Source of the DNA: a virus
Lineage: Duplodnaviria > Caudoviricetes
IMG/VR virus record: IMGVR_UViG_3300021400_001148
Span: 32,001-96,000 of that record
Strand: one strand, 5' to 3'
DNA length: 64,000 nucleotides
Shown here: positions 50,657 to 63,177 of the stretch, piece by piece
Numbering within the stretch: the stretch's first letter is position 1
How the letters are laid out: each line of letters begins with the position of its first letter
Notes under the pieces: generated by a model
What the model saw: only the letters and a program-made list of their open reading frames with translations
Database searches by the model: none
What the model was told of the DNA's origin: nothing
Made by a program: the position numbers and the translations under genes

Positions 50657-51128
50657 CGCAGACAAACTGATTGCACTTATAGATGCAAAACTTGAAGATT
50701 TGGGATTGAGTGGTTCTGTTTGGGTTGGAAGAAGTGTTCTCCAAGATTTAAAAAATAATATAATTACTTCTCTCCAGCAGGAGATGCTGGAAACATCAAA
50801 TAATTTGGTAGATGTCGACGCAGTAAGGGATGATTTTATGACGGAAGTCTATCGTGTACTTGATGCTGACCCCACAAATGATAGAGCGAATGCAATAATT
50901 AACGCATTTGATTCTTTGCCGACAATCTCTCAGGAACAGCCGGAGGTGGATTTGGAGAAAATAGAAAAAGCATCATACAAAGTCTTTCCTGCCAAGAAAA
51001 AACTTGGCGTCGAAAAAATCAAATACCCCAATCGAGAAGATGAAAACTTTTCCAAACGAGAAATATGGAAAGATGGTGTTATATGGGCAATATACAGCCT
51101 GAACAGAAATGTAAGAAAGGAGGATTAA
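50619..51128 (+). CDS. modular linker/cassette protein (G-H-H-I)
   Basis: YIDADKLIA, SLQQEM, QEQPEVDLEK, NVRKED. Confidence 0.75.
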   Translation: MDILKQHIGHYIDADKLIALIDAKLEDLGLSGSVWVGRSVLQDLKNNIITSLQQEMLETSNNLVDVDAVRDDFMTEVYRVLDADPTNDRANAIINAFDSLPTISQEQPEVDLEKIEKASYKVFPAKKKLGVEKIKYPNREDENFSKREIWKDGVIWAIYSLNRNVRKED

Positions 51129-51133
51129 GGTAT

Positions 51134-51301
51134 ATGCAATGGAAAGAATTAAAATGGTATAAGGCAGATAAGGATTATTCTTTTTCCTTTGTTAGATGCC
51201 TTGTTATTGCTAAAAATGGAAATGTAGTAATAAGAAACAATGCTAAAAAAGGTGAGCACTATATTCCACTGCCAATCATAGAAGATTTACCAAAAGATTA
51301 A
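51134..51301 (+). CDS. small hypothetical cassette gene
   Basis: lies between two I-type repeats; its stop codon is the repeat TAA. Confidence 0.6.
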   Translation: MQWKELKWYKADKDYSFSFVRCLVIAKNGNVVIRNNAKKGEHYIPLPIIEDLPKD

Positions 51302-51322
51302 CGCAAGAAAGGAGGCAACCAA

Positions 51323-51535
51323 ATGAGTTGGTATTTGATTGTATTGTTGATTATATTCTACATAGTAATGTGGATTATTACAACTATTGCTTTTGCACGA
51401 TGGGCAAAAAGTTCTGATTCGGGATGGCTTATAATAGGAGCAATATGGCCTTTAACTTTTATATGTATTCCTTTAGTAGCAGTGATTCTGTTTGTTGACA
51501 AGATTGCCAATAAGTACGGTTATAAGGAGAAATAA
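51323..51535 (+). CDS. small two-TM membrane protein
   Basis: hydrophobic; IWP. Confidence 0.7.
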   Translation: MSWYLIVLLIIFYIVMWIITTIAFARWAKSSDSGWLIIGAIWPLTFICIPLVAVILFVDKIANKYGYKEK

Positions 51536-51537
51536 CT

Positions 51538-51732
51538 ATGCAAGTTAAAATAGATTTTTCAGAAGATTGCAAAGCAAACAATTATAGTCTAGAGAGACCT
51601 GGCACCTATGCAATTTATGTTCGTAAAAACTGCTTCCATAAATGGAAACAAATACAATCATATGCAGATGTTTCACTTGCACTCTATGAGTTTCGCAAAC
51701 TAAAAGAGGCGGCACATGCGATTGAGCTCTAA
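51538..51732 (+). CDS. small hypothetical protein
   Basis: its stop codon is the TAA of the I-type repeat at 51730. Confidence 0.6.
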   Translation: MQVKIDFSEDCKANNYSLERPGTYAIYVRKNCFHKWKQIQSYADVSLALYEFRKLKEAAHAIEL

Positions 51733-51752
51733 CGTAAGAAAGGAAAAATAAC

Positions 51753-51968
51753 ATGAAAGCACCAGAAAAAGTTTATATTGATGACTTGGCTGTTGTCAAT
51801 GATTGTGCCACGAAAATATCGTTAAAACAACTTCCAAACTTTTCCGAATATATCCGCAAGGACGCTCTGCTGGAGTGGGCGAAAACGGAGAGGGCAAAGT
51901 GCTCCAATGAAACTCATCCGTATGCACAATTTATGAATGTCGTTATTAACAAACTCAACTCAAAGTAA
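51753..51968 (+). CDS. hypothetical phage protein
   Basis: MKAPEKVY...EYIRKDALLEW pattern. Confidence 0.7.
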   Translation: MKAPEKVYIDDLAVVNDCATKISLKQLPNFSEYIRKDALLEWAKTERAKCSNETHPYAQFMNVVINKLNSK

Positions 51969-51969
51969 T

Positions 51970-61067: not shown

Positions 61068-61070
61068 CCT

Positions 61071-61385
61071 ATGAAATACATTGACGCAGACAAACTGATT
61101 GCCGAGATAGAAAGGCTCGACAAGGTAAGCAAAGAAACAATGAGGTCCCCATCTGGTGTAGGTCTTGAATTTGCATTTGGGATTTCAGCAGGATATGCAG
61201 ACGTATTAAAACTCATCGCCTCTCTCCAGCAGGAGCAGCCGGAGGTGGATTTGGAGAAAGAAATTGAACAATACACAATCGGCTTTATTGGAGAACTTAG
61301 AAACTATAAAGATTGGACTCCAAGAATTGCTCGGTTCGCCCGCTACTTCTACGAACTTGGATTTAACGCAAGAAAGGAGGAATAG
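61071..61385 (+). CDS. modular linker/cassette protein (G-H-I)
   Basis: MKYIDADKLIAEIER, SLQQEQPEVDLEK, FYELGFNARKEE. Confidence 0.85.
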   Translation: MKYIDADKLIAEIERLDKVSKETMRSPSGVGLEFAFGISAGYADVLKLIASLQQEQPEVDLEKEIEQYTIGFIGELRNYKDWTPRIARFARYFYELGFNARKEE

Positions 61386-61387
61386 AT

Positions 61388-61804
61388 ATGCCATACGAAA
61401 TCAATGGAGTCAGTATTTGTATAGAGCGAGAATATTTGCGGGATGGACAGTTTCAGGACTTAATGTCTTATTATGATGACGATGGTACTTGTTTCTCAGA
61501 CTTTGACATAACAAACGAAGATATATATGAAGTCGAGAATCCGTGTTTTCTTTCTGACATTTTTGTTTTCCAAAAGAAGCGCTTTAATCATTTTATTTAT
61601 GGAGATATTGAAACTATTTGTTTCATAAAACTAAATGACAGGAATAAGATAGAAGAAATTGGGTTTGACTTTTCTTCAAGATTCCATTTAGAAAAAGATA
61701 AAACATACAAAAAAGCAACGGCACTACACAAAATTCCATTTCTTTTAATTGGTGATGAAATGTGGCTTAATGCAAGAAAGAAGAAAGTAAATGAAATACA
61801 TTAA
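61388..61804 (+). CDS. hypothetical cassette gene
   Basis: AT-rich ORF between I repeats at 61364 and 61768; ends LNARK. Confidence 0.7.
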   Translation: MPYEINGVSICIEREYLRDGQFQDLMSYYDDDGTCFSDFDITNEDIYEVENPCFLSDIFVFQKKRFNHFIYGDIETICFIKLNDRNKIEEIGFDFSSRFHLEKDKTYKKATALHKIPFLLIGDEMWLNARKKKVNEIH

Positions 61805-62090
61805 CACAGATAGACTGATTGCTGAGATAGAAAGACGAAAGAAAGAGAGAAGAGAATTTGTACAAAAGCGCGGGCTTTCGTCTCTTGGTAATGCTGCTCA
61901 AATTAGGGCAAACGAAGATGAGGAGATTCTTTCCCTCATCGTATCTCTCCAGAAGGAGCAGCCGGAGGTGGGTTTAGAGGAAGAAGTTAAGAGGTGGAAG
62001 GATAAACACGGAGTGGTTGGTATGGATGATTTGTGGCTCAAATTTGCATGTCACTTCTACGAACTTGGCCTTAACGCAAGAAAGAAATGA
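61791..62090 (+). CDS. modular linker/cassette protein (G-H-I)
   Basis: MKYINTDRLIAEIER, SLQKEQPEV, HFYELGLNARK. Confidence 0.85.
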   Translation: MKYINTDRLIAEIERRKKERREFVQKRGLSSLGNAAQIRANEDEEILSLIVSLQKEQPEVGLEEEVKRWKDKHGVVGMDDLWLKFACHFYELGLNARKK

Positions 62091-62254
62091 GTAACTATTA
62101 TTGTTTGTATTGTGAGTATTACAAGCCGACACAATGCGGTTCAGAAAATACCGAGCCGGAGGGTATATGTTGCAATCCGGACACGGCAATAGACCGTGTA
62201 TATGGTCATGAATGTTGTGAATACTATGACGCAAGAAAAGAGGAAAGTAAATGA
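62087..62254 (+). CDS. small Cys-rich cassette gene (not in the ORF track)
   Basis: MSNYYCLYC...CCEYYDARKEESK between I repeats at 62072 and 62227. Confidence 0.65.
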   Translation: MSNYYCLYCEYYKPTQCGSENTEPEGICCNPDTAIDRVYGHECCEYYDARKEESK

Positions 62255-62967
62255 AATACATTGATGCAGATAAACTGAAAGTTAAGATAAAGGGGCTACA
62301 ATGCGAGCAAGGGTTTGATACCGGAGAGGCGGAAAGTGCCTATCAACTTGCTACAAAAGACATTCTTGTTTTCATTGACTCTCTCCAGCAGGAGCAGCCC
62401 GCAGAGTCTGACGTGATAAAAGGTGGAGACTTTATTAGCGATGGGAAAAGAGTCTTTCTTGTTCTTGCAAATGTGGAAGAAAGAAATCTCGGAGAAACAG
62501 GCTCAACCTTCTGCGAAGGTCATATTCTCGGCGTTGATGGTGTTGTGTATTGTAATGGGGACAACTTTATAAAGTTTAAGCGAGCAACCTCGAATGAAAG
62601 AGCAAAGTTTATTCATGATTTGAAGGTCGGGGTTGAACTTAAAGAGCAGCCGGCAGAGTGGAGCAAGGAAGATGAGATATTCTTGGGGGTCTGCAAGAAT
62701 GCCCTCAGTAAATATGAGCGTTCTGATAAGTGGGATGCCAGCATCATTTCAGAGTGGCTTGAAAATCGCCTCAAATCCTTCCGTCCCATGCCAAAGCAGG
62801 AGCAGCCGGAGGTGGATTTGGGGAAGTTTGATAAGGATGTGACTAAAATTTGGGGTAGATGTGCAGCCGAACCAAATGATTCAATCGCTTGTCTTCATAT
62901 TGAAACTTTTAATGAAGTTGCTCGCCATTTCTACGAACTTGGTTTTAATACAAGAAAGGGGGATTGA
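62251..62967 (+). CDS. chimeric modular linker/cassette protein (G-H-C-D-H-I)
   Basis: MKYIDADKL, SLQQEQP, EQPAEWSKEDE, WLENRLKSFRP, QEQPEVDL, HFYELGFNTRK. Confidence 0.85.
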   Translation: MKYIDADKLKVKIKGLQCEQGFDTGEAESAYQLATKDILVFIDSLQQEQPAESDVIKGGDFISDGKRVFLVLANVEERNLGETGSTFCEGHILGVDGVVYCNGDNFIKFKRATSNERAKFIHDLKVGVELKEQPAEWSKEDEIFLGVCKNALSKYERSDKWDASIISEWLENRLKSFRPMPKQEQPEVDLGKFDKDVTKIWGRCAAEPNDSIACLHIETFNEVARHFYELGFNTRKGD

Positions 62968-62968
62968 T

Positions 62969-63145
62969 ATGGCACATTGGTTTAAATGCCCTCATTGTGG
63001 TAGGGGCGTTTGTGATGAAATGGGCGAAAATCTCGTGGATTACGAAGAGGGTCTGTATAGATGTACCGAATGTGGTGGTATTATATCCACTGATGATGAT
63101 ACGATAGACTATGAAGAATATGCAAAAATTGAAAATCTAATATAG
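62969..63145 (+). CDS. small zinc-ribbon cassette gene
   Basis: CPHC...CTEC; between I repeats at 62946 and 63149. Confidence 0.7.
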   Translation: MAHWFKCPHCGRGVCDEMGENLVDYEEGLYRCTECGGIISTDDDTIDYEEYAKIENLI

Positions 63146-63177
63146 TTATAATGCAAGAATGGCAAATTCTAAAAACA

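Follow-up and report, generated by a model that had tools for sequence, protein, structure and literature searches.

Exchange of non-homologous modules at conserved linkers is an old idea for which, to our knowledge, there are few well-documented cases, the PeSLs (promoter-early stem-loops) of T4-type phages being the main one. The modular theory of Susskind and Botstein reportedly invoked conserved boundary ('linker') sequences for modular exchange among lambdoid phages. PeSL cassettes have been described by Arbiol et al. 2010 (PMC2839356) and Comeau et al. 2014 (PMC4122927), and a second kind of repeat, the start-associated sequences (SAS) of cluster K mycobacteriophages, by Pope et al. 2011 (PMC3203893). 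Here we describe a short repeat, linker I, in a 64,000-nucleotide stretch of phage DNA, the window, which comprises bases 32,001-96,000 of IMG/VR record IMGVR_UViG_3300021400_001148. The whole record (354,809 bp) has direct terminal repeats and is estimated to be complete. Linker I, taken as the 17-mer TAAYGCAAGAAAGGAGG, lies where one small gene ends and another begins, and comparison with relatives points to it as a place where whole genes have come and gone. Coordinates are those of the window unless marked genome.

Conservation of linker I and exchange at the repeat blocks

Scanning the window for TAAYGCAAGAAAGGAGG with up to three mismatches gave nine matches, all on the + strand, against 0.47 expected, a number reached in none of 100 shuffled sequences. 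Eight of the nine lie within 51107-62962, each at the junction between a gene end and the next gene start (Table 1). The ninth, at 19934 (three mismatches), had no comparable junction and was dropped as a chance match. Together with a degenerate copy at 63149, the eight agree with the coordinates and the repeat reported in a preliminary description of this DNA, and its claim that copies always occur at gene end/start junctions holds for every copy between 51.1 and 63.0 kb. As it also stated, the repeat supplies either a TAA stop codon (copies at 51299 and 51730) or the terminal NARK/DARK codons of the upstream gene, the motif being read in frame as N/D-A/V/T-R-K in the other six copies. Genes lying between copies, described there as unrelated, indeed showed no similarity to one another by BLASTP, and the gene order at 61-63 kb confirms that members of one protein family (P1, P2 and P3) alternate with foreign genes (X1, X2 and X3). 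Genes in the window are tightly packed, nearly all of them on the + strand. The 354,809-bp genome has one additional good copy (genome 106,922), which likewise forms the 3′ end of a family member, and five related jumbo genomes contained merely one to three copies each, so that linker I is not a genome-wide repeat. Arrays of two to four junctions, 130-440 bp apart, recur in other contigs.

The family to which P1, P2 and P3 belong is large. A database search returned 1056 relatives (E up to 0.001), with which all three align; these are all unnamed and none has a Pfam domain. Members are built as MKYIDADKL / var1 / SLQQEQPEVDLEKE / var2 / ARHFYELGLNARKEE, about 100 aa in all, and an alignment of 54 of them contains three near-invariant blocks (MKYIDADKLIAEIER, SLQQEQPEVDLEKE and ARHFYELGLNARKEE) with two hypervariable stretches, var1 and var2, between them. 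The AlphaFold model (pLDDT 80) predicts two hairpins, four helices in all, which the unstructured middle block connects; the ARHFYELGLNARKEE end forms the end of helix 4. No PDB entry matched this model in Foldseek with E below 0.9. Searches of Pfam and PHROGs with the family and all cassette genes gave nothing except weak zinc-ribbon matches for 62969-63145, and megablast of 50.6-63.2 kb against 50,697 GenBank phage records gave no match. Linker I is the DNA of the last residues of the family, LNARKEE-stop.

Codon usage in the blocks was examined at loci retrieved with degenerate protein patterns, a selection that takes no account of synonymous sites. In the C-terminal block (C block) alanine was encoded by GCA at 25 of 25 loci (background 0.35), arginine by AGA at 24 of 25 (0.27) and leucine by CTT at 24 of 27 and 20 of 24 (0.31), and a glycine codon amid the same block used all four codons freely. 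The middle block was similarly uniform, with serine as TCT at 17 of 17 loci (background 0.20), leucine as CTC at 16 of 18 (0.18) and proline as CCG at 13 of 15 (0.25). Binomial p values for this fixation range from 1e-7 to 1e-13; they overstate independence, having no phylogenetic correction, and are given to show the size of the effect. At 40 junctions behind genes outside the family, taken from IMG/VR contigs and this genome, conservation sets in abruptly at tTAAC with no signal upstream. The upstream open reading frame (ORF) reads through in the NARKEE frame in 26 of these, stops at the TAA in 13 and uses the third frame in one (chi-square p 8e-6); the third frame is the sole frame in which the junction gives no stop. 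When instances were chosen by AGAAAGGAGG and a nearby ATG only, 47 of 91 carried TAAYGCA with at most one mismatch, and the whole 17-mer therefore travels as a unit. Judged from these counts, linker I is conserved at the level of the DNA and not of the peptide.

Comparisons with relatives were made on metagenome assemblies throughout, exchange being deduced from the differences between them. P1 combines two sources: its var1 is identical at 94 of 95 nt to one contig (L001) and its var2 at 69 of 70 nt to another (L002), the reciprocal halves are unrelated, and the crossover lies within the 53-nt middle block. Behind its P1-type var2, L002 has a different gene, encoding a membrane protein. The next gene, X1, is 84% identical to its L001 counterpart; this homology stops inside linker I, and a different gene comes next in L001. 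In a bovine-gut contig with about 97% identity to the window, position 62387 is joined directly to 62796, and the 408 nt (136 codons, in frame) that lie in P3 between two GCAGGAGCAGCC cores of the middle block are missing. A stretch of about 1.4 kb in this contig differs from the window, and similarity returns at 61783, the 3′ edge of linker I copy 5. X2 is present in three contigs. Its homology sets in precisely at the C block of the upstream family member, which is a different one with a different var2 in each contig, and ends after GAGGAA, with three different genes downstream. In a 363-kb relative (G004) the counterpart of 50619-51128 is directly followed by the counterpart of 51753-51968 and the three small genes of the window are absent; here the right-hand end falls in the Shine-Dalgarno (SD) part of copy 3, and G004 shares the SD part alone.

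The same pattern was found in larger sets. Among 89 family proteins, 43 pairs shared only var1, 67 only var2 and seven both, so that 110 of the 117 pairs with a variable half in common have only that half in common. The genes downstream of 70 junctions fall into 49 clusters; 52 pairs of junctions had related downstream genes, and 43 of these had unrelated upstream genes. Members of the MKAPDK gene family that are preceded by the junction follow at least eight unrelated upstream gene families. Breakpoints were spread over the blocks, with no single fixed position. On these comparisons linker I is a seam where whole small genes have been swapped, acquired and lost among relatives, and the 5′ MKYIDADKL block and the middle SLQQEQPEVDLEKE block play that role for half-genes. 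Comparison of orthologous loci was the test that the preliminary description had set for itself: gene content between repeats varies, and the breakpoints fall inside repeats. Its proposal of a recombination site stands as regards the exchange, gain and loss of whole genes and gene halves at the repeat, but not as regards the term 'integron-like'.

The complete 354,809-bp genome gave no match to tyrosine recombinases (PF00589), for which control matches were obtained in 14 of 14 genomes, and no serine recombinase (Resolvase), RecT or ERF was found in it. The earlier remark that no integrase was visible is thereby extended from the window to the whole genome, and the search that it proposed, for tyrosine or serine recombinases or single-strand annealing proteins, returned neither recombinase and neither RecT nor ERF. 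The only recombinase found is a UvsX-like protein, a RecA-fold ORF of 375 aa encoded outside the window on the + strand (genome 290,065-291,192; L153:566-1693), which matches RecA in Pfam (41 bits) and the UvsX-like recombinase phrog_97 (E 5.6e-13). Eight 71-nt stretches around linker I copies were folded as single-stranded DNA. Their minimum free energies were -0.8 to -6.6 kcal/mol (z -0.80 to +1.58 against shuffled sequences), giving no hairpin; the purine-rich core was unpaired, and the site is non-palindromic and without dyad symmetry.

The lack of an integrase and of dyad symmetry, the spread of breakpoints, the like behaviour of the in-frame blocks and the presence of a UvsX-like gene together lead us to read the blocks as homology patches. 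Linker I is probably a portable junction of about 25 nt (tTAAYGCAAGAAAGGAGGAAta, a few bases, ATG) that provides a patch of shared DNA for recombination and also keeps the joined genes translatable. Its origin would lie in a very large family of small helical proteins with two hairpins, whose genes it ends as the 3′ coding segment (LNARKEE-stop), and mostly it would still be that. As the phage DNA replicates, short identical stretches would recombine by the general homologous route, with the phage's own UvsX-like recombinase, and no site-specific enzyme, as the probable agent.

Several points weigh against this reading. Homology patches of 17-50 nt are short for exchange of the RecA/UvsX type. 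Only about 5 of 65 KYIDA genes are preceded by linker I, which is therefore not a universal connector. Codon fixation occurs beside one freely varying glycine codon, a combination that suggests selection on the sequence more than recent spread alone, and a reader of the blocks at the DNA or RNA level may be considered as a candidate. The SD part of the junction may go unread if the host is one of the Bacteroidales (PMC7797042, PMC9976891). Finally, any one chimera might have arisen during assembly at a repeat; this seems unlikely overall because the pattern recurs in contigs of many studies and because the blocks are shorter than a read.

Translation signals and alternative readings

TAnnTTTG boxes were present 20-40 nt upstream in 54 of 172 genes with a non-coding leader, against 19 in the opposite orientation. 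GGAGG was found upstream of only 14 of 371 ORFs, against five at a control position. Relatives of the family lie on contigs binned with Bacteroidales metagenome-assembled genomes (rumen, gut) in six of eight cases. The boxes, the scarcity of GGAGG and the binning together indicate that the host is probably one of the Bacteroidales. Near-identical or related DNA was present in cattle, goat and sheep gut metagenomes. Ribosomes of Bacteroidia are reported to be SD-blind, the anti-SD being sequestered by bS21, bS18 and bS6 (PMC7797042, PMC9976891, PMC13000453), and what initiation requires there is an unstructured A-rich leader and not pairing with an SD (PMC6847099).

GGAGG is separated from the next ATG by 6-8 nt in 62 of 70 junctions. 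The junction halts two of the three incoming frames, at the initial TAA or at a TAA, TAG or TGA after GAG-GAA, within 24 nt of the next ATG. Neither promoters nor terminators coincide with junctions, and the sole strong hairpin (63178-63201) closes the unit. The arrays at 51.1-51.7 kb and 61.4-63.2 kb may be promoterless cassette runs inside one long rightward transcription unit. The junction would offer an unstructured purine-rich leader and GGAGG, so that a terminating ribosome could restart on the next gene, and such a leader would matter because Bacteroidia initiation relies on unstructured A-rich leaders. Any gene joined there would, on this anatomy, remain translatable by termination-reinitiation. 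The stop and initiation signals noted in the preliminary description are borne out by stops in two frames and an SD at canonical spacing, but the third frame has no stop; that any captured cassette is expressed is a possibility, and the probable host group reportedly does not use SDs. The junction resembles the T7 gene-10 leader (TTAAC...AAGGAG). A canonical A-rich AAGGAGGAA leader precedes the ATG by 4-7 nt in about a dozen small genes, which lie at genome 83-148 kb (window 51-64 kb and further on) and cluster in accessory-gene arrays; the genome is otherwise without SDs.

The junction might be kept purely as a stop/restart leader, its mosaicism being incidental since phage mosaic joints fall at gene borders. 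This is an unlikely explanation with some evidence in its favour: the 6-8 nt spacing is tight and the region is unstructured, the MKAPDK gene keeps its AAGGAGGAA leader in 14 of 16 contigs even without TAAYGC, and about 12 other small accessory genes of the phage have that leader without TAAYGC. It would, however, leave unexplained the conservation of TAAYGCA upstream of the SD, the equal codon fixation in 5′ and middle blocks inside ORFs and the middle-block crossovers, and the host group is reported to be SD-blind.

A more elaborate possibility, which we regard as decidedly doubtful, is that the SD of the junction is a phage-specific translational gate, with cassettes translated only by ribosomes in a particular bS21 state. 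It is considered because the host anti-SD is hidden by bS21, because only about a dozen small accessory genes of the phage, with the cassettes among their number, carry AAGGAGGAA leaders, and because the phage has a bS21 of its own. This protein (63 aa; PF01165, 43.8 bits, over the cut-off) is encoded outside the window on the minus strand at genome 132025-132216, by a gene without its own SD. For rpsU in Flavobacterium, translation dependent on the state of bS21 has been reported. Release of the anti-SD by the phage protein was unsupported at first look, there being a tyrosine at residue 54 by plain counting (compare PMC9723584). If the gate existed, one 17-mer would be both a recombination seam and a switch timing the expression of shuffled cargo.

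An integron-like site-specific system, in which the 17-mer would be an att-type site at which a dedicated recombinase excises and inserts circular cassettes, is very improbable. Arrays of small promoterless genes that are unrelated, run in one direction and lie between copies of one repeat fit such a system, as does the sharp start of conservation at tTAAC in non-family contexts. Yet a complete genome with direct terminal repeats contains neither tyrosine nor serine recombinase, no inverted repeat or hairpin was detected (z -0.8 to +1.6), breakpoints vary in position, in-frame blocks inside genes behave alike, and related jumbo genomes have one to three copies each. With conserved repeat blocks as seams, no integrase, no attC hairpin and a UvsX-like recombinase, the reading as a recombination junction holds and the integron analogy does not.

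There is likewise little to commend NARKEE as a functional C-terminal tail, for instance a sorting, degradation or interaction tag. The ARHFYELGLNARKEE end is near-invariant in more than 1000 family proteins, at the end of helix 4, and 26 of 40 non-family genes read the motif in the NARKEE frame; but 13 of the 40, two of which lie in the window, stop at TAA and never translate it, synonymous codons are fixed, and the tail after K varies (EE, EK, K, GD, EESK). A mosaic produced by chimeric assembly at short repeats, conceivable in that all compared sequences are metagenome assemblies and the blocks are repeated within and between co-occurring phages, is scarcely credible when reads exceed the length of the blocks (17-53 nt), which are 85-95% alike but usually not identical, the same architecture recurs across many projects in IMG/VR and, among Logan contigs, in four runs that belong to four studies, reading frames are preserved throughout, and the exact P1 protein is present, with the same gene order, on two independently recorded contigs.

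Features of the two arrays and neighbouring gene families

Table 1. Linker I copies and genes of the two arrays (window coordinates)
Feature	Position	Strand	Remarks
Linker I copy 1	51107..51123	+	2 mismatches; NVRKED-stop of family member 50619-51128; next ATG 51134
Linker I copy 2	51299..51315	+	Exact; TAA is the stop of unrelated 55-aa gene 51134-51301; next ATG 51323
Linker I copy 3	51730..51746	+	3 mismatches; TAA is the stop of 51538-51732; next ATG 51753 (MKAPDK family)
Linker I copy 4	61364..61380	+	Exact; NARKEE-stop of P1; next ATG 61388 (X1)
Linker I copy 5	61768..61784	+	In X1 tail (LNARKKK...); L001 likeness ends here, bovine-gut contig likeness resumes at 61783
Linker I copy 6	62072..62088	+	NARKK-stop of P2; ATGA overlap with X2 start
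Linker I copy 7	62227..62243	+	DARKEESK-stop of X2; next ATG 62251 (P3)
Linker I copy 8	62946..62962	+	NTRKGD-stop of P3; next ATG 62969 (X3)
Degenerate last copy	63149..63165	+	4 mismatches; 3′ of X3 stop; no real gene behind; just before terminator hairpin 63178-63201
Family member, 169 aa	50619..51128	+	Two middle blocks; G004 counterpart directly followed by MKAPDK gene
Three small unrelated genes (51134-51301, 51323-51535, 51538-51732)	51134..51732	+	Bounded by copies 1-3; absent at corresponding place in G004
MKAPDK-family gene, 71 aa	51753..51968	+	AAGGAGGAA-type leader in 14 of 16 cases across contigs
P1, 104 aa	61071..61385	+	KYIDA...FYELGLNARKEE family; chimera; var1 61118-61212, middle block 61213-61265, var2 61266-61335
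X1, 138 aa	61388..61804	+	Unrelated; between copies 4 and 5
P2, 99 aa	61791..62090	+	Family member
X2, 55 aa	62087..62254	+	Cys-rich; between copies 6 and 7
P3, 238 aa	62251..62967	+	Family member; additional 408-nt in-frame module 62388-62795 between two GCAGGAGCAGCC cores
X3, 58 aa	62969..63145	+	Zinc-ribbon-like (weak matches); last cassette

A second conserved junction type was seen at 61035-61070, where the ...LYNDLQKLL-stop of the family represented by 60192-61067 runs directly into the ATG of a KYIDA gene. At least four more contigs (L075, L077, L089, L118) have this junction DNA 5′ of KYIDA genes. The family in question is a larger paralog family (43303-44061, 49666-50442, 58719-59738 and 60192-61067) with the recurring blocks ESEDERIRKEL, AYLEKQKEQKPAEWSEEDE, LKSLRPQP..WKPSEEQ and LYNDLQKLL, and contigs from all four sequencing runs jump between its blocks, for example from 58864 to 60400. 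The P3 module at 62388-62795 carries a KPAEWSKEDE-type motif of a neighbouring paralog family.

A separate paralog family comprises eight genes of about 140-180 aa at 37444-39987, 45256-45765 and 57628-58701 (mutual BLASTP E 1e-5 to 1e-41). Within the genes 55829-56305 and 56549-56974, stretches of 50-90 nt (55839-55908, 56050-56110, 56230-56313 and 56550-56612) recur five to ten times each in five related jumbo-phage genomes at 80-90% identity, the intervening DNA not being conserved. An architecture of blocks and variable stretches therefore exists in other gene families also. Directly after the cassette run at 51.1-51.97 kb, 51937-52758 encodes a 273-aa protein with pentapeptide repeats recognised by eye (runs of A-D-L-x-x), of which contig L020 holds a 68%-identical copy.

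Comparison with known systems

PeSLs, like linker I, are short conserved repeats between small non-essential ORFans in plastic regions of large lytic, UvsX-encoding phages (T4-type); indels and replacements between close relatives end in the repeats, and homologous recombination has been proposed (PMC2839356, PMC4122927). General recombination is phage-encoded here too, by the UvsX-like protein (phrog_97). A PeSL is, however, a transcription border consisting of a sigma-70-type promoter and a terminator stem-loop. Linker I lacks both of these and so is not a PeSL; what it marks is a border of translation (stop, SD and start). It is mostly coding, and its sister blocks shuffle half-genes. Mini-circles have been demonstrated for PeSLs, whereas linker I is known here from contigs alone.

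SAS share with linker I an asymmetric, single-orientation repeat a few base pairs upstream of the starts of non-structural genes of different families, with an SD core and sometimes with the upstream stop inside the repeat; their role is unproven and thought to be translational. The 13-bp SAS consensus GGGATAGGAGCCC is nevertheless not matched by linker I, only the GGAG core being common to both. Half of the SAS carry an inverted repeat and linker I carries none. SAS belong to another host phylum and phage type, and have not been described as the coding tail of a protein family or as a recombination seam. The likeness to integron attC/attI sites lies in the look of the array only, with promoterless, co-directional, unrelated genes bounded by a repeat; linker I has no IntI, hairpin-forming imperfect palindrome or fixed crossover point, and it is coding.

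For uncultivated jumbo phages of the ruminant gut, the present arrays give a clear case of exchange at linkers. These act at the level of translation units and half-proteins, are kept letter-for-letter against codon bias, and have yielded a family of more than 1000 proteins whose two halves reassort almost freely. The arrays provide a testable model of how large phages renew accessory genes, which probably serve in host interaction or anti-defence, and linker I would be a natural 'standard connector' that keeps joined genes expressed. A perfect SD is unusual in a probable Bacteroidales phage that barely uses SDs and encodes bS21. A canonical SD in an SD-ignoring lineage, beside a phage bS21, makes a question of Bacteroidia translation experimentally approachable.

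The lambdoid linkers were likewise proposed as short conserved sequences guiding homologous exchange of non-homologous modules. They differ in being rarely documented and in belonging to temperate coliphages, whereas the blocks described here belong to a jumbo phage, in which they lie within small ORFs or at their ends and are conserved at the codon level. The traits that set linker I apart are its coding origin in a huge two-module family, its use in two frames and its SD in a largely SD-free genome.

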